A stretch of DNA of 38,019 nucleotides, from NCBI GenBank assembly GCA_027001995.1, contig JALTLO010000019.1, positions 48,874 to 86,892 on the forward strand. The letters run 5' to 3'. The position numbers were made by a program. The DNA is from Planctomycetota bacterium. GTDB taxonomy: Bacteria > Planctomycetota > GCA-002687715 > DRQF01. Positions 27,001 through 36,000 of the stretch are shown piece after piece; positions within the stretch are counted from its first letter, which is position 1, and every line of letters starts with the position of its first letter.

Positions 27001-30000
27001 AGAATCACCGACTTGGATTACGCCAAAGAAAGCGCAAAGTTCACCAGAAACCAAATCATGCTCCAAGCATCCTTGTCGATTCTGGCCCAGGCAAACCTGC
27101 AACCACAGGCACTCTTGGGCCTCATCGAAGGCGCAAGGATCCCTTAGGCACGATTCAAAGCCTGAAACAGAATGGTTTGGGCAATCATGAGATCGCTGGG
27201 GCATGGCCCCGGCGACCTCATGAATTGCAAAACTCAACGCGTGGCGTCAATAACTCTCACCTGGACATGACATGTACGGCACTTACTCTCCAGAGCAATA
27301 GCCGGAATTCTCTTGTGGACAATTGCTGGAGCCCCACTGATGCCATTGTCATGACACATACGACAATCATCCTTCAGCCAAGCCTTCCTGTGGGACTGGG
27401 AAGCCGGTATTGACGGAGGAAATGCAAAGCTCGCGAAGCCTCGATCTTCTGCGATCTTACTCTTCGCTTTTTCCTTGGCACCCCAATGAGGCAACTCGTT
27501 GGGGATCTCAACATGGCACGTGCGGCATTTCGCCGTCTTCAAGATTGGTGACATGCCCCGATGAACAATCTCCGGTGCTTTGCCAACGCCCGTTTCGTGG
27601 CAACGCAGACAATCGTCTTGTTGCCATGCGGACGCGTGCCAAGCGCTATCCGAGATGGTCGGCGGAAAGGCGTCGTCCTCAAATGGCGTTTCTGATTGCC
27701 TAACAGCAACAACTTTAGCCGGTGCTTCCACGGGCTTGGGCTTCATCGGGACCTTTGCCTTGACTTCCTCTTGGGATGCTGGCAAGGACTCGGCCAATTC
27801 AGTTTCTCCTTTCGTCGTTTCCTCAGGCGGGTGTGAGGCCAAAACAACTGGTGTGGCTTCTTCTCCTATGGCCTGGGGCTCGTCGCCGTTCTCATGACTT
27901 GTACAACTCAGTACAACGAGGAGCAGCGCCGAACACAACAGGCTCGAACAAATCCATCTATACATGATGTTTCTCCTTCGGATCCAGTTTGCGGGTGTTG
28001 GTCGAATTTAGCTGAACAACACGGGCTATGCCTTCTCCAACTTCACAGCGCACATCTTAAACTCTGGTTGTTTCGAACCAGGATCGAAGGCGTCTATGGT
28101 GACTAAGTTGATAAGACTCGGAACGTCTTCCCAGTGCATCGGGACAAAGATCATGCCGGGCTGAGGCGCTTGGGTGATCCGCACTTTGACCGTAGCCTCA
28201 CCTCTCCGCGAGGTGATCTTGATCTTCTTGCCATCTCGAATTCCCAGTTTCTTAGCGTCGTCTGGATGCACCTCAACAAAGCATGTGGGGTAAGCACGGC
28301 GCAATTCTCGAGCCTTCATGGTCATAGTGCCTGTATGCCAATGCTCCAGGACTCGACCAGTGGTGAGAACGAAAGGATAATCAGCGTCAGCAGGTTCGGC
28401 CGGACCAAGGGCGGGCCTCAGCCATACAGTCGCTCGATGGTTGGGGGCGGCGTAAAATTTCGTCTCGCCCGGCTTCAAAGTGAGGTCGGCGTATGGGCCG
28501 GCATCGAGACATGGATCTTCTCCCTTGACGAACCGTCTCGCGGTTCCAGGATGGCCCACTGTTGGGGCCGGCCACCTCACTCCCCTTTCCTTACGCAACC
28601 GCTCTCTTGTGATACCGCGGAAGTCGTATGCGGTGTCTTTCGACGCCAACATCATCTCTTCCCAAACGTCGTCTGTGGTCTTGAACTTACTGGACACATA
28701 GCCCTTAGGGACGACTCCATGGGCCTCCAAGCGACCAGCGAAATCAAGAAGGAAATCGAAGTCTGAAACGGTTCCTGCTGGGGCTGGAATCACTTGAGGG
28801 TGCAGTTGATAGCGGCGTTCGGACATGCCGAAGACACCCGTTTTTTCTGACCAGATGGCCGCTGGGAGCACCACATCGGCTAGCTCTGTTGTCCTGGTGG
28901 GGTAGCCGTCAATGACGCAAATAAACGGTTTGTTAGGCCGAGGTTTCCCCATAGCATCGCGGTAAACCGAGACATTGGGAAGACTATGCCCCGGGTTGGT
29001 GGTCAAGATGAGCATGGCTTGCACCTCATCTCTTGCCAAGGCCTGGAACATGGCGATGGTATGCAGACCTGGTTTGGGCTTGATGGTGCCGGGTTTACAA
29101 CCCCAGATCTTCTCCATCTCTTCTCTGTGCTTGGCTTTCTTGATGGCGCGGCCATAAGGAAGAATGTGGCACAAAGAACCGGTGTCGCGGACGCCACCAC
29201 AGGCATTGGGTTGCCCTGTAAGGGAAAATGGTGTTGCCCCAGGTTTGCCGATTTGCCCGGAGATGAGATGCAGATTGTGCATCAGGTTATTGACCCAGAC
29301 ACCTCGGGTTCTTTGGTTGAGCCCCATAGTCCAGAATGAAGTTGTTGGCCCCACAGCGAAGATTTTCGCTGCTTCCTCGATCTTGGCTTGAGAGACACCG
29401 GTCTGAAGCTCAGCCTGCCGCGGAGTGTAGTTCTTGCTGAGCCACTCAAAGTACTCATCAAACGTCACATTGGTGGGCTTTTTGTCTTTGACGATCTTGA
29501 ATTGGACGTTCTTTTCGATGAAAGCCTTGTCATGCTTCTTGTCTCGGATCATGCAGTAGGCCATAGCGTGAAGAACGGCTAAGTCATAGCCCGGCACTGG
29601 GTCGAGATGGACGTCAGCGATGGTGTCGATGGGGCTCTTTCTCGGGTCAAGGGTAATGATCAACACATCACGATTTTGTTGTTTGCGGGCCAAGATTTGG
29701 TCGTAAATGACGGGATGGCATTCAGCCGTGTTAGAACCGACCAAGAAGAACACTTTGGCGTGTTCAATGTCGTCGTAACTTCCCATGGGTTCATCTTTGC
29801 CGAAGGTAGAAACATACCCTCCGACGGCGCTGGCCATGCACAGGCGTGGATTACCTTCAACATTGTTGGTGCCGATGCCACCTTTGAACAAACGATTGGC
29901 GAGATAGCTTTCTTCGCTCATGGCTTGGCCCGAGCCATAGTAGGCCACAGAGTCTGGACCGTGCTTCTTGATGGCACTGGCAAACTTCTCGGCCACCAAG

Positions 30001-33000: not shown

Positions 33001-36000
33001 TTCGTAGCGCCCAAGCCCGTGGTGGTTATCAAGACCGAAGAACAGGTACTTGGCAGAAATACTGTGGGCTGCCCCCGTGTAGAACTCGGTGAACAACTCA
33101 CACCCCAACAAGAAGGCATTGATAGTGAGGGCCACGGTGACGATGCGACGGAGCAAAGCCAAAGCCTCATCGGGCACATTGTAGTCAGTGAATTTGCGGA
33201 TAATCTGCAAGGTCAAGATGATAAATGCCGGGCCAGCGGCAAAAGCCGAAGCCAAGAAGCGAGGGGCAATGATGGCGGCGTTCCAGAATGGACGCCCTCC
33301 TAAACCGACGTAAAGGAATGCCGTCACCGTGTGAATACTGATGGCCCAGAACACCGCCAAGAAGACAAATGGCATATAGAACTTCTTGCCGGGTTTCTTC
33401 TTCTTATAGGCACACCAAACTAAGTAGCCACAGATGTGAAGGTTGAGCATCAAGTAGACGTTCAGAACCACAACGTCCCAGGTCAACATCGACATAGGAA
33501 AGTTGAAGCGCAAGAACAGATGCATGAAACGATCAGGGCGTCCCAAATCAACGGTCACAAAGGCCAAGCACATAAGAATGGCCGCCACCGCCAAGAGCTC
33601 ACCAAAGATGACGAGGTCATGAAGGGCCGTCTTCTTATAAATGTAAACCGGAATCACCATCATGGCTGCGGCCGCGGCCATCCCCACCAAGAAAGTGAAG
33701 TTGGCGATATAAAGGCCCCAAGAAACCTGGTCGGTCATACCCGTTGTGATCATGCCATCAACAAGCTGCTTGCAATAGGCGTTCAGGCCCAACAATGCCA
33801 CAACGGTCAGCAGTAGCATCCACAAGCGATAGCGCCAATCTCCGATGAAACTCAGAGCAAAGCAACGTTTCAGAAAGACAAGATAGGCACCCATGATTAA
33901 TCCCCTTTCTCTTCTGAACGATGATAATCTTCATCGAAGTAGTAGAAGAATCGAGGAATCGTGCCGACTTCTTCCTTCAAGACAAAAACTCGTTTGTGCT
34001 TCAGCACCTGAGACACATCGCTATTCGGATCTTTGATGTCACCAAACTTGCGAGCGCCAACGGGGCAGACTTCTAGGCACGCAGGATTTTGACCATTGCG
34101 TGTGCGATGCAAGCAGAAGTGGCACTTCTCCATCACCCCTTTGTGACGAGGGCGATTGGAAAGATAGGACATGGTCGGATTCACTTCTTCCTTCGGAATA
34201 GAAGGTTCTGTGAAGTTGAATCGTCGAGCAAAGTAGGGGCAAGCAGCTTCGCAATAACGACAGCCGATGCACCAATCATAATCAACAACGGTGATGCCGT
34301 CGGGCTCGGTCCAGGTCGCTTCCACAGGGCATACCTTGGTGCAAGGAGGGTTCTCGCACTGATGGCATTGGATGGGCATGTAGAAGTGGTCGTCTTTCGG
34401 CACCTTGGGGTGATCATAGGTGTGATCCCCCTTCTCGATGTCAATCGTGCCTCGAGGCATTTCCAAGACGCGGATGTACTGAATTTCAGGATCGCGACTT
34501 TGATTGTTTTCTTCCACGCAAGCATGGACGCACTTACGACAGCCAATGCAGGCTCCCAAGTTCAAAGCATAAACAAACTCGACACCATCTTTAGGTTTGA
34601 TGTCGCGGATGTCCGGACGAACCTTGTATCGTTCTTCCACTTCCTTGGTGATGCGATCCAAGACCTTGGCCATCTCGGTCTCGTCCAGCTCTTTGTAATG
34701 CTGTTGCAAGAATTTCTCGACGGTAAAGTCAGAGGTATCCAAAGACTTCAGAGGTGATAGGGCTGCAACCAAGGCGGCCATGCCCCCCGCTGCGCCTGTG
34801 GCGGCCCGGAAGAAACTCCGCCTATCCATGCTGCCATTGCTCGAGCAACTCATTTGTGTGATTCCTTGTTCGGGTGCATACGCAAGGTGTTGGGTCCTGG
34901 AAGAGGTGTCACAGGTGACATCGCCGGCGTCCGCGGGTGGTGAGGGTCATGGCATTCCGTGCAGGTCAGCTTCTTGCGCTCTCCCGCAGTCGAATCCCAA
35001 AATCCATTGGTGCGACCATGGATACCATTGTCCCAGTCTTTGCGCTTGCGCACATGACACTGGCCACATTGATCCACGACATCGGCATAAGGCATTTCAC
35101 TGCCGTCCAAGCCAGCCAACTTGTCACGATTCTCCCAGGCGTGACATGTGGAGCATTTCACATTGGGACCATGATTAAGCTTCACGTTTTGGTGCCGCAG
35201 AAGCTTGCGAGGCTTGTCACTCTTACTCACAACGCTGGTATGACAGTGCATGCAAGTGGCATCGTTCCCAGCTAACTTAATGGTGGGAGGATCTGTCATG
35301 GGAACGCGCCGGGGTGCTGCGGATAACAAAGCCCGATCGAACTCAGGGGTTGCAGCGTTGGGCAAATCGTCCAGATTAGGTCCCCAAAGGAACCACGCTG
35401 CCAGTCCGAACAACAAAGGACCGATGGCCCACCCTGGCACCCAGGGGGATCCAGGCTCTGTCGTTTGGTTTTGTTTGGTGTTGCTCATCTCTCACTTTCT
35501 TCCTGTCCACCAGCCCGTGCTTCCCAAGGGCGGCACCGAAAGACTCGAAATCGGGGACCTACCCCCAGTTTCCGAGCCGGGACAGAAGGGAACGCAAAAC
35601 CGTGGCCATAAGGCTCAGAAATTCGAGTTTTCTGAAAATTAGAAGATCAGGTGAGCAACGGTGACAACAAAGAAGGTCCACAACGTGGCGTAGGCCGACT
35701 CACGCATGCCAACGCGCTTGAGACCTTGGCGTCCGCCAGAACCACCAAGAGAAAGCGATTTCCTCACTTCTACCGTTCGCCAACAAAAAAACGGCAGCAA
35801 AAGAATAAGCAAACCAAAGGCACAAACATAAGATGCACCTCCGGCCACAGCAGCGCAGGGTGCGGCCAAAGCCAAAGCCCCCACAAAGAATGTCAGCGCT
35901 GGCAAAGACTGAAAACCCAAACGATAGGCGAGGTATGCCCCAAGTAGCCCGGGCAGGGCTGCTAAAGACCCCACAACAAAGAAGACCGGATTGGCCCCAA

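Follow-up and report, generated by a model that had tools for sequence, protein, structure and literature searches.

Does the planctomycete operon that joins an NrfD-type membrane module, an octahaem cytochrome of the hydroxylamine oxidoreductase (HAO) family and the nitrate reductase NapA encode one respiratory chain, and what would the octahaem protein (Hao) do in it? The window in which it lies, the whole stretch analyzed, comprises 38,019 nucleotides of contig JALTLO010000019.1 from a Planctomycetota bacterium, and all coordinates are window coordinates. Our reading, which we hold at a probability of about 60%, is a periplasmic nitrate-respiration chain in which a single NrfD-type quinol entry would feed both NapA and Hao, the latter reducing nitrite, most likely to ammonium.

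Gene Content and Layout of the Operon

A first-pass annotation had listed eight co-directional genes, and all eight open reading frames were present at 27234–35488 on the minus strand, in the order tetrahaem cytochrome, Tat FeS protein, NrfD/DsrP-like protein, octahaem Hao, 150-aa protein, NapD-like protein, NapA and second tetrahaem cytochrome (Table 1). A motif scan returned the same CxxCH counts along the operon as that annotation (4, 0, 0, 8, 0, 0, 0, 4) and no CxxCK haem motif. Spacing is tight: the first cytochrome and FeS genes overlap by 4 nt, as do the NrfD and Hao genes, the second overlap being counted with the Hao start placed at its signal peptide. The YwiC-like protein encoded upstream scored 21.7 bits against Pfam YwiC, under the cut-off of 25, and a counterpart (41–43% identical) in the same position was seen only at loci L032 and L033; whether its gene belongs to the operon unit is uncertain.

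Table 1. Genes of the operon and its upstream neighbor, in window coordinates.
Product	Coordinates	Strand	Features
YwiC-like membrane protein	35639..36286	-	215 aa; 150 nt upstream of operon, same strand
Tetrahaem cytochrome c	34850..35488	-	212 aa; N-terminal hydrophobic stretch; 4 CxxCH
FeS subunit, NrfC/PsrB/DsrO type	33897..34853	-	318 aa; Tat-exported; four clusters
NrfD-family integral membrane subunit	32617..33894	-	425 aa; ~10 hydrophobic helices
Octahaem Hao, IhOCC type by sequence	31160..32620	-	486 aa; Sec signal peptide; 8 CxxCH
150-aa conserved protein	30672..31124	-	no signal peptide; no named family
NapD-like small protein	30397..30690	-	97 aa from TTG start
NapA, periplasmic nitrate reductase catalytic subunit	28026..30347	-	773 aa from MENTRRDF
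Tetrahaem lipoprotein-like cytochrome	27234..27965	-	243 aa; NapB/NapM-like; dihaem unit duplicated internally

The Quinol Module and the Nap Proteins

The first cytochrome gave weak Pfam cytochrome c3/c7 matches, and its four CxxCH motifs and further His residues were invariant in 20 homologs. Its N-terminal stretch (about residues 16–36) was not scored as a transmembrane helix by a simple hydropathy scan; we infer a membrane anchor for this protein, and propose that it acts as a haem wire from the FeS subunit to the periplasmic reductases. The FeS subunit has four Cys cluster motifs and an RRSF motif at residue 11, and NapA has RRDF, so both twin-arginine motifs of the first-pass annotation were found. 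Pfam Fer4_11 matched the FeS subunit at 64.6 bits, and its top NCBIfam model was DsrO (170.9 bits, under the cut-off of 200). The NrfD subunit, the proposed quinol-oxidizing site, scored 140.9 bits against Pfam NrfD and 410.7 bits against NCBIfam DsrP (above the cut-off of 350), but merely 27.1 bits against the NCBIfam NrfD equivalog model; the hydropathy scan gave about 10 hydrophobic segments, and it contains no CxxCH. Taken with the Tat and Sec signals, the CxxCH counts, the four FeS motifs and the roughly ten helices fit the proposed topology, and support reading the first four proteins, in composition and topology, as a quinol dehydrogenase of the NrfD type that faces the periplasm, together with a soluble Hao.

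NapA carries the Pfam domains Molybdop_Fe4S4, Molybdopterin, Molydop_binding and TAT_signal. Its top NCBIfam model was NapA at 646.9 bits (under the cut-off of 904), and its closest solved relative was Desulfovibrio desulfuricans NapA (2JIO, E 1.6e-232), as the earlier reading had anticipated. The NapA open frame extends up to 30464, beyond the start chosen here. The NapD-like protein matched Pfam NapD at 22.4 bits (E 1.4e-4), under the cut-off of 28; an alternative ATG, six codons in, immediately follows the upstream stop codon. At other loci a NapD above the cut-off occurs directly before NapA (L045), between Hao and NapA (L186) or after NapA (L193 and L202).

In the lipoprotein-like cytochrome an N-terminal hydrophobic stretch ends in LSC, and the two halves of the protein are 48% identical to each other (E 1e-21). 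A tetrahaem protein that follows NapA at L038 and exceeds the Pfam NapB cut-off shares 23% identity with it (E 7e-8), and we propose the duplicated-dihaem cytochrome of the operon as electron donor to NapA. The 150-aa protein gave no Pfam or NCBIfam match and has no HExxH motif in its sequence. Its homologs make up only 12 clusters, and its gene occurs at 11/20 module-linked planctomycete loci and at L167–L169. An AF2 model (pLDDT 92.4) has a zincin-like fold, with ImmA/IrrE-like proteins and minigluzincins as top fold matches (Z 8.4–9.1); the protein is possibly a maturation factor.

Under the electron path that we infer, the DsrP-like NrfD subunit would oxidize (mena)quinol on the outer side of the membrane, as its family and topology suggest. 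The Tat-exported DsrO/NrfC-like subunit would carry the electrons over its four [4Fe-4S] clusters to the tetrahaem cytochrome, which would hand them to two soluble reductases sharing this module. NapA would reduce nitrate to nitrite, probably via the duplicated-dihaem NapB/NapM-like lipoprotein, and Hao would reduce nitrite, possibly hydroxylamine or NO, with ammonium the most likely product.

Hao Is of the IhOCC Type and Lacks the Cross-Linking Tyrosine

Hao matched Pfam Multi-haem_cyto at 87.7 bits. The matches to Nitrosomonas europaea and Kuenenia HAO on which the first-pass annotation relied are there (E about 1e-19 to 1e-11), but it had overlooked a much closer protein, Ignicoccus IhOCC (4QO5), by far the nearest solved relative (E 5e-52 with the single sequence, 1.6e-102 with the profile). 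At E<=1e-3 the family profile matched 31 PDB sequences, which comprise IhOCC, HAO, HDH, ONR, NrfA, OcwA and the selenoprotein MccSep. Sequence comparison thus assigns Hao to the IhOCC type. Activity data for IhOCC reportedly come from Parey et al. in 2016.

The cross-linking tyrosine had been left unchecked. Hao has Trp405 in the column of N. europaea Tyr467, a match made through a chain of alignments and partly in a multiple alignment of the weakly conserved C-terminal region. This replacement of the tyrosine of oxidative HAO makes a reductive role likely, and Hao would have a conventional catalytic haem in place of P460. Reductive HAO-like proteins carry Trp at this position according to a preprint (10.64898/2026.07.28.741245), and PMC9250108 describes IhOCC as an octahaem nitrite reductase without P460 haem. 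We propose that Hao ends the chain by reducing nitrite, hydroxylamine or NO.

The ammonium end-point is a guess, because tyrosine-less HAO-family enzymes differ in product: PMC9250108 and PMC10732223 cite Kuenenia Kustc0458 as reducing nitrite to NO. With the same wiring, Hao might likewise make NO from nitrite, for further reduction, detoxification or signaling. Kustc0458-type sequences share the Trp column with Hao, and at L170 a flavodiiron-type gene (ODP and flavodoxin domains) directly follows Hao. However, Hao lies far nearer to IhOCC than to Kustc0458 (6H5L, E 2.5e-17), and IhOCC is placed with nitrite reductases of the NrfA/ONR kind in PMC9250108, so that we consider NO as the product unlikely.

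Module, Hao and NapA Recombine Across Genomes

The order tetrahaem cytochrome, FeS protein, NrfD and Hao held in all six genomes named by the first-pass annotation (L038, L041, L045, L034, L047 and L052), and we obtained the same counts for the 150-aa gene (4/6) and NapA (2/6). Among 401 sampled Planctomycetota, 116 had a Hao-like match at E<=1e-20 and 21, the window's own genome included, a full-length match at >=62% identity. At 24 planctomycete loci with Hao at >=55% identity, the module adjoins Hao in 20 and Hao stands without it in four. NapA is also present at 7/20 module-plus-Hao loci; at nine such loci at least 2 kb of downstream sequence holds no NapA. All 25 Hao sequences in the window's gene order fall in one clade with support of 100.

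Second-tier planctomycete loci have a 49–57% identical module beside bona fide NapA with Hao absent (13/13), which fits a shared module and goes against the earlier idea of a complex dedicated to Hao. In Thermodesulfobacteriota the window order occurs in 4/40 loci (Hao 63–65%, NrfD about 60% identical), and the order Hao, tetrahaem cytochrome, FeS protein, NrfD in 10/40, with NapA following in seven of the ten. Those Hao-first loci with Pfam annotation (n = 3) encode napM-like, napA, napD, napG-like and napH-like genes; the module is not generally shared with NapA, since the Nap of these clusters has NapG/NapH-like genes of its own. Hao, module and NapA thus co-occur in at least three phyla and in two different gene orders, but their partnership is loose, because the module occurs with Hao but not NapA (nine loci) and with NapA but not Hao (thirteen).

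The first-pass annotation had also expected the complex to explain the widespread planctomycete hao genes, yet most of these belong to classes other than the NrfD-linked clade, which occurs in 21/401 genomes. At 15 fetched loci of other classes (L056–L070, including one paralog from the window's genome, G000) a cytochrome b gene lies directly upstream of Hao in nine by Pfam and 11 by tblastn.

The host genome, 92% complete, has no NapC/NrfH, NrfA, cd1 NirS, NirK or NapH over the cut-off, in favor of the main reading. Against it, the genome is incomplete and other quinol oxidizers, such as its two further NrfD-family genes, could serve Nap, and NapA, NapD and DsrO scored under their curated cut-offs. 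The 13 Hao-free loci would also suit a module that is in essence Nap's own quinol dehydrogenase in place of NapC/NapGH, with Hao as an accessory enzyme that detoxifies nitrite, hydroxylamine or NO and draws on the periplasmic haem pool, and not a respiratory partner in a defined complex. The lack of NapC and NapH over the cut-off and the close loci with Hao alone, like the other input modules found elsewhere, agree with such a loose tie. Against Hao as a mere accessory are the 4-nt overlap of the NrfD stop with the Hao start, the module–Hao pairs without NapA at at least nine loci and the Hao-first clusters, which keep the module beside Hao although their Nap has NapG/NapH-like genes; we regard this arrangement as quite improbable.

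Sulfur Compounds and the Reverse Direction

A unit acting on sulfite, tetrathionate or polysulfide in the manner of MccACD or Dsr, the alternative offered by Slobodkina et al. (PMC5276818), would suit the top NCBIfam models of the module and the origin of the host DNA in a hydrothermal-vent metagenome. We think it very improbable: dsrA was not found in the host genome, DsrM, DsrK and DsrJ genes are not in the operon, MccA (4RKM) is absent among the 31 PDB matches of the Hao profile, and it is NapA with NapD, rather than any sulfur enzyme, that recurs as neighbor.

In complexes such as Qrc and ACIII, an NrfD-type module may run one way or the other. A reversed chain, in which Hao would oxidize hydroxylamine or another reduced nitrogen compound and the module reduce quinone as in the hydroxylamine:quinone module of nitrifiers, draws on the HAO family membership of Hao and on NrfD-type modules that can run in either direction elsewhere (PMC8076601), but with Trp in place of the tyrosine of oxidative enzymes and a nitrate reductase, hence a reductive pathway, as operon partner, it is the least credible of all.

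Comparison With Known Systems

The complex had been taken as undescribed. A locus of a Hao homolog, NrfD, a 4Fe-4S protein and a membrane cytochrome c beside napMADGH is, however, reported for Thermosulfurimonas dismutans and Dissulfuribacter thermophilus (PMC5276818, published in 2017), with nitrite reduction hypothesized for organisms without NrfA, and the same cluster type is described for strain F29 and T. marina (PMC9676032, 2022). Like the window, these loci combine all four kinds of protein with adjacent nap genes and have small genes of unknown function in between; homologous clusters occur in 14/40 Thermodesulfobacteriota loci, the published proteins being compared by description. They differ in having napGH, where the window lacks NapG and NapH, has napD, napA and a cytochrome gene after Hao, and comes from a planctomycete. 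In the literature searched we found no member of the cluster backed by biochemical, genetic or expression evidence. The cluster type is already known and widespread, and the operon in the window is a planctomycete example of it.

Like Hao, IhOCC has eight haems and belongs to the HAO fold class; the alignment of the two covers part of the sequence, with insertions in IhOCC. The proposed wiring also recalls the quinol:nitrite oxidoreductase NrfABCD of Escherichia coli, described as NrfD, a four-cluster NrfC, the small multihaem wire NrfB and a soluble multihaem nitrite reductase (PMC12285233). There the terminal enzyme is pentahaem NrfA with CxxCK, whereas the window has an octahaem Hao and its genome no detected NrfA; the E. 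coli wire is pentahaem and that of the window tetrahaem, and the window NrfD is DsrP-like by the scores given above. In MccACD/SirACD an octahaem sulfite reductase is likewise served by an FeS and NrfD-type quinol module (PMC8076601), but MccA belongs to another multihaem clade, and its N-terminal module houses the catalytic haem (PMC9250108), and Mcc lacks the extra tetrahaem subunit. The J-O-P half of DsrMKJOP is similar in its DsrP and DsrO and in the small periplasmic multihaem cytochrome alongside; the window cytochrome, in contrast, has four haems and no DsrJ match, and the operon lacks the M, K and J genes.

In the anammox R/b complexes and the Nitrospira OCC, Rieske/cytochrome b modules are joined to HAO-family octahaem cytochromes. 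At L060, L061 and L068 a reductive Hao lies directly behind a quinol-oxidizing module, and in some cases NapA and a NapB-like cytochrome come next. Such units share with the window the placing of a reductive Hao behind a quinol module; their module is of the Rieske/cytochrome b family instead of NrfD, and their Hao proteins fall in clades of the tree different from that of the window Hao.

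An Eight-Gene Operon Combines an NrfD-Type Module With Hao and NapA

The first-pass annotation had described eight co-directional genes at this locus, and all eight open reading frames were found on the minus strand at the positions listed in the table. Its gene labels agreed with Pfam and NCBIfam, with the NapD and NapA matches lying under the curated cut-offs. The genes are closely packed, with 4-nt overlaps at the cyt4/FeS and NrfD/Hao junctions, and the feature is real and coherent. We refer to the upstream tetrahaem cytochrome (cyt4), the FeS protein and the NrfD-family protein together as the module, or trio. 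The order cyt4-FeS-NrfD-Hao, noted earlier in six other genomes (L038, L041, L045, L034, L047, and L052), was recovered in all of them. In L052 (G186) the FeS and NrfD genes of the otherwise intact cluster are set apart by roughly 2.9 kb of additional sequence (4661-7552) holding several short ORFs.

Positions of the operon genes in the window, and of two example loci, in their own coordinates, with the trio beside NapA
Feature	Position	Strand	Description
Tetrahaem cytochrome (cyt4)	34850-35488	minus	212 aa, 4 CxxCH, hydrophobic stretch at N-terminus
FeS protein	33897-34853	minus	318 aa, RRSF twin-arginine motif, four cysteine cluster motifs
NrfD-family protein	32617-33894	minus	425 aa, about 10 hydrophobic helices
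Octahaem cytochrome (Hao)	31160-32620	minus	486 aa counted from signal-peptide Met, 8 CxxCH
Unknown protein	30672-31124	minus	150 aa
NapD-like protein	30397-30690	minus	97 aa
NapA	28026-30347	minus	773 aa, start at MENTRRDF
Second tetrahaem cytochrome	27234-27965	minus	243 aa, N-terminus hydrophobic, ends LSC
Trio and NapA, L249	8179-14069
Trio and NapA, L237	3656-9422

Past the downstream end of the operon the opposite strand carries genes for a HEAT-repeat protein (24060-25466, plus), a DinB-family protein (25699-26181) and flagellin (26320-27147); these are unremarkable and delimit the unit. A gene for a YwiC-like membrane protein (35639-36286, minus) lies 150 nt upstream and is kept there only in L032 and L033, the closest relatives with enough sequence. 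Between positions 26800 and 36700 a scan found 3 sites resembling promoters, where 6.0 were expected, and 17 resembling terminators (10.0 ± 3.1 expected); neither set marked the operon ends. Searching sequencing runs for the window listed five DNA rows from two studies, the best labelled hydrothermal vent metagenome, and no RNA dataset.

The 150-aa protein showed no signal peptide and matched no named family in Pfam or NCBIfam. Only 12 clusters of homologues were found; this unnamed family spans Planctomycetota, Verrucomicrobiota and Thermodesulfobacteriota, and its invariant residues include H18, D45, E118, C137 and D141. The predicted model (pLDDT 92.4) was most like small zincin-like proteins (ImmA/IrrE-like, abylysin, selecase), with middling VIA-align Z scores of 8.4-9.1; the sequence has no HExxH, and Foldseek gave no match in the PDB at E<=1e-3. 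In the Atlas there were only unnamed clusters at 0.97, with peptidase-like leads at 0.81-0.82. The gene co-occurs with the module in 11 of the 20 module-linked planctomycete loci described below and in three Thermodesulfobacteriota loci (L167-L169). Our guess is that it encodes a cytoplasmic maturation or proofreading factor.

The Octahaem Cytochrome Is Predicted to Lie Outside the Oxidative HAO Subgroup

The eight CxxCH motifs of the window Hao are fully conserved across an alignment of 27 family members, and the protein scored 87.7 bits on PF13447 (Multi-haem_cyto; cut-off 21.9). By sequence it is assigned to the HAO/IhOCC octahaem cytochrome c family, whose members form homotrimers with 24 haems and turn over nitrite or hydroxylamine. 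It had previously been likened to the HAO proteins of Nitrosomonas and Kuenenia only; the closest solved relative is IhOCC of Ignicoccus hospitalis (4QO5), at E 5e-52 against roughly 1e-19 for the Nitrosomonas europaea enzyme. With a profile of the 27 sequences the match to 4QO5 strengthened to 1.6e-102, and that to Nitrosomonas europaea HAO went from 7.5e-19 to 1.3e-48. According to the accessible text of Soares et al. (2022; PMC9250108), IhOCC is an octahaem nitrite reductase without the P460 haem.

The first-pass annotation had left the cross-linking tyrosine unchecked, so we located the counterpart of Tyr467 of N. europaea HAO (1FGJ). Aligning the family profile directly to 1FGJ placed His404 opposite Tyr467, in a C-terminal stretch scoring a weak -3.6 bits. 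As this was too weak to rely upon, Tyr467 was placed by way of anammox HAO paralogues, 30 in all from five genomes, aligned with the Hao family. One of these, an ORF from L207, gave a full-length alignment to 1FGJ (353 bits) in which its own tyrosine faces Tyr467. In the resulting family alignment the window Hao has Trp405 in that column, as do the Kustc0458-type and multicopper-oxidase-fused (MCO-HAO-type) paralogues, and both HMMER alignments to the Kustc0458 structure (6H5L) concurred. In either alignment the residue opposite Tyr467 is thus not a tyrosine. A Tyr-to-Trp swap at this site in reductive HAO-like proteins is described in the available part of a 2026 preprint (10.64898/2026.07.28.741245), and together with Trp405 this places the window Hao, as predicted from its residues, outside the oxidative HAO/HDH/HOX subgroup with P460 haem. 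A family-conserved tyrosine, Tyr402, lies three residues upstream of Trp405 and may have some role.

A predicted complex of Hao (27-row alignment) with the cyt4 haem domain (residues 60-212, 20 rows) scored 0.00 and 0.00, which gives no answer either way. The window's genome (G000) has a second, distant Hao-like octahaem gene on another contig (C79 42251-43348; L064 9055-10104), a 411-aa ORF with 34% identity; in the fetched stretch it has a protein kinase gene upstream and no NrfD, cytochrome b or NapA neighbor.

The Module Resembles DsrOP and May Supply Both NapA and Hao

Members of the NrfD/PsrC family of quinone-interacting membrane subunits have the NrfD Pfam domain, 8-10 transmembrane helices and no redox cofactor motifs. 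The NrfD subunit of the operon scored 140.9 bits on PF03916, has about 10 hydrophobic segments and contains no CxxCH, and is classed on these features as a putative member. It also scored 410.7 bits on the NCBIfam DsrP model (cut-off 350), and the FeS protein was nearest to DsrO (170.9 bits, under the cut-off of 200), whilst scores on the NrfD and NrfC equivalogs (27.1 and 108.8 bits) were far under their cut-offs.

Two known complexes were considered and rejected. Against DsrMKJOP, no operon protein matched DsrM, DsrK or DsrJ in Pfam or NCBIfam, dsrA was not found in G000 (92% complete), and the DsrO match is under its cut-off. Against NrfABCD, whose NrfA is a pentahaem protein with a CxxCK haem and whose NrfB is also pentahaem, none of the eight operon proteins has a CxxCK motif and G000 gave no Cytochrom_C552 match. 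The module is a DsrOP-like set in another job. Its topology is like that of NrfBCD, DsrJOP and ActABC: the FeS protein is exported by Tat, the haem protein carries a signal or anchor sequence, and the integral subunit has no cofactor motifs. The set is oriented toward the periplasm and, by analogy with its family, would oxidize quinol.

The window NapA has a Tat signal and the Fe4S4 and molybdopterin domains (Pfam), its best NCBIfam models are those of NapA (646.9 bits; cut-off 904), and its best solved relative is Desulfovibrio desulfuricans NapA (E 1.6e-232). These features identify it as a predicted catalytic subunit of periplasmic nitrate reductase (Nap). The NapD-like protein is under the Pfam cut-off (22.4 bits; cut-off 28), and its gene has the place beside NapA that true NapD genes have in L045 and L186. 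The second tetrahaem cytochrome consists of a dihaem unit repeated within the protein, with 48% identity between the halves (E 1e-21), and shares 23% identity (E 7e-8) with the tetrahaem protein that follows NapA in L038, which itself exceeds the Pfam NapB cut-off. We read it as the electron donor of NapA.

The 92% complete G000 was searched for other routes. No NapC/NirT/NrfH protein exceeded its cut-off, the sole PF03264 match (21.9 bits) being inside Hao itself, nor did NapH (best 77 bits against 213), so that neither of these known Nap quinol dehydrogenase components was found over cut-off; NrfA, cd1 NirS and copper NirK were likewise not found over cut-off. Two further NrfD-family genes are present elsewhere. 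The simplest reading is that the operon module feeds both NapA and Hao.

Window-Order Hao Genes Form One Clade Across Phyla

Hao-like matches at E<=1e-20 were found in 116 of 401 sampled Planctomycetota, with full-length matches of at least 62% identity in only 21 (G000 included). We fetched 40 planctomycete loci and scored neighbors by tblastn. The module was directly upstream of Hao in 20 of the 24 loci where Hao was at least 55% identical, and absent there in four (L039, L042, L048, L049). NapA lay within the fetched stretch in 7 of these 20; in four others the contig ends too early, and nine had at least 2 kb downstream without it. Two of the four exceptions, L039 (G317) and L042 (G141), are stand-alone second Hao copies of the window type from genomes in the same family as G000. 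Directly upstream of each is a cytochrome c554 domain (73 bits), in a 171-aa protein in L039 (10500-11015) and within a 386-aa ORF in L042 (7760-8920), an arrangement resembling the HAO-c554 pairing of nitrifiers.

Across many phyla, scanning a single genome for each species gave 80 loci with Hao 37-56% identical, and the module was present only in L108, from a Pseudomonadota MAG. Among 401 sampled Thermodesulfobacteriota, 160 had a Hao-like match at E<=1e-40. In the best 40 of these loci, four had the window order (Hao 63-65% identical), three of them (L167-L169) with the 150-aa gene as well, and ten had the order Hao-cyt4-FeS-NrfD, in which Hao comes first and NapA follows in 7 of 10. Three Hao-first loci annotated with Pfam carried a NapM-like cytochrome, NapA, NapD and NapG/NapH-like proteins. 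In the Hao-first cluster of L193 a HEAT-repeat gene (5244-6035) lies between NrfD and the NapM-like gene; the HEAT-repeat gene of the window is outside the operon. In L170, which has the window order, a gene with NIR_SIR and ferredoxin domains (5200-6093) lies upstream of the module and a flavodiiron-type gene (ODP and flavodoxin domains; 10476-11678) directly after Hao; these hint at NO or oxygen handling beside the unit.

A FastTree phylogeny was built from 159 Hao sequences, leaving out L105 (an X) and L190 (6 motifs only) and with the labels of L031, L047 and L046 set by hand. All 25 window-order sequences fell in one clade of 30 with support 100, a FastTree value to be read cautiously, and the four Thermodesulfobacteriota members were nested within it. 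Eleven Hao-first sequences formed a separate clade (also 100, with the same caution). The whole Hao family is large and, at E<=1e-10, comprises no fewer than 8000 clusters of 90% identity.

The commoner planctomycete Hao class (43-51% identical) has a cytochrome b gene directly upstream. Among 15 fetched loci of other Hao classes, Pfam placed cytochrome b upstream in nine (L058, L059, L060, L061, L063, L067, L068, L069, L070) and tblastn in 11, with a Rieske gene also in L063, L068, L069 and L070. By tblastn only, the linkage was seen in L111, L112, L117, L123, L129, L134, L145, L176 and L182. It is found in other phyla too. NapA follows the cytochrome b-linked Hao in L060, L061 and L068, and a NapB-like tetrahaem cytochrome follows NapA in L060 and L068.

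The Trio Also Occurs Beside NapA Without Hao

Searching with the NrfD subunit gave matches in 78 of 401 Planctomycetota at E<=1e-60, 19 of them the Hao-linked form (at least 60% identity). From the remainder, 16 matches were hand-picked at top and lower ranks. Thirteen of them (L237-L249) have NrfD 49-57% identical, and in every one the trio stood beside NapA with no Hao match in the stretch, mostly divergent from NapA but codirectional with it in L248 and L249. All six of the NapA genes tested from these loci scored 858-1003 bits on NCBI NapA models. The other three (L250-L252; NrfD 45-46% identical) had neither NapA nor Hao.

Taken with the Hao-linked loci, these 13 show that planctomycetes have three states: module with NapA, module with Hao, and module with both. 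This is where the earlier picture changes most: rather than a set of subunits reserved for a quinol:Hao complex, the trio behaves like a quinol-side supply serving periplasmic nitrogen-oxide reductases in general, and in L237-L249 it looks like an unrecognized NrfD-type quinol dehydrogenase for Nap. More tentatively, the trio could represent an unnamed, widespread family of such dehydrogenases. In Planctomycetota and Thermodesulfobacteriota this family would be the usual point at which electrons enter periplasmic nitrogen-oxide reduction, taking over from NapC, NapGH and NrfH and supplying NapA, reductive Hao or both. The 10-helix DsrP-like subunit might also allow energy conservation, which NapC does not provide.

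A Proposed Electron Transfer Chain and Its Alternatives

We propose that the NrfD subunit would oxidize quinol and pass electrons via the four-cluster FeS protein to the tetrahaem cytochrome, and that this would supply both NapA, reducing nitrate to nitrite, and a reductive IhOCC-type Hao, taking nitrite onward. We give this chain as a whole a probability of about 0.6. Ammonium is probably the product of Hao, a point we hold less firmly than the chain itself; the rival product is NO, a gas whose handling is among the hints beside the L170 cluster, and the chain would be the same up to the last step. Hao could also be a mere detoxifier beside a Nap-specific module. The 13 loci with trio and NapA fit such a module, and the nine module-linked planctomycete loci with Hao and at least 2 kb downstream free of NapA fit it poorly. 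Sulfur compounds as substrates would suit the DsrP-like membrane subunit and have been proposed for a similar cluster (see below), with the NapA in the operon and the missing dsrA on the other side. A chain running in the reversed direction would use an enzyme of the HAO family, but sits badly with Trp405 at the Tyr467 position.

Should the proposed chain hold, nitrate could be respired to ammonium or NO via a Hao-type enzyme in many bacteria with no NrfA, NirS or NirK. Gene-based surveys of the nitrogen cycle would miscount them, because such genes are annotated 'hydroxylamine oxidoreductase' and taken for markers of nitrification or anammox. The module beside NapA alone points to an unrecognized Nap quinol dehydrogenase, which would bear on whether energy is conserved by periplasmic nitrate reduction in these groups.

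Comparison With Published Gene Clusters

The complex had been put forward as undescribed, yet the same type of cluster is in print. Slobodkina et al. (2017; PMC5276818) report that Thermosulfurimonas dismutans and Dissulfuribacter thermophilus carry a cluster of 11 genes: napMADGH, two unknown genes, and four encoding a HaoA homolog, a member of the NrfD family, a 4Fe-4S protein of the periplasm and a membrane-bound cytochrome c. Their hypothesis was nitrite reduction, with sulfur compounds named as the alternative. We cite Allioux et al. beside this work as prior knowledge. The accessible text of a review of NrfD complexes (Calisto and Pereira, 2021; PMC8076601) contains neither 'hydroxylamine' nor 'octaheme', and the arrangement is not catalogued there. 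From what is available of two other papers, PMC10732223 concerns another kind of NrfD cluster, ACIII-like, from planctomycete MAGs, and PMC11896075 a Psr-like nrfD with no bearing on this one. In the open-access literature searched, we found no experimental test of this cluster type.

This analysis adds the placement of Trp at the Tyr467 position, the recognition of two gene orders, a clade in which members from another phylum are nested, loci where the module partners NapA alone, and the cytochrome b upstream of other Hao classes. The window itself contributes one more example, this one from a planctomycete, of a cluster type that had appeared in print before, and introduces no new principle. 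By the published description (PMC5276818, as far as its text is available), it matches the Thermosulfurimonas/Dissulfuribacter-type locus in composition and in its nap neighborhood, and clusters homologous to that of the window were found in the same phylum, Thermodesulfobacteriota.
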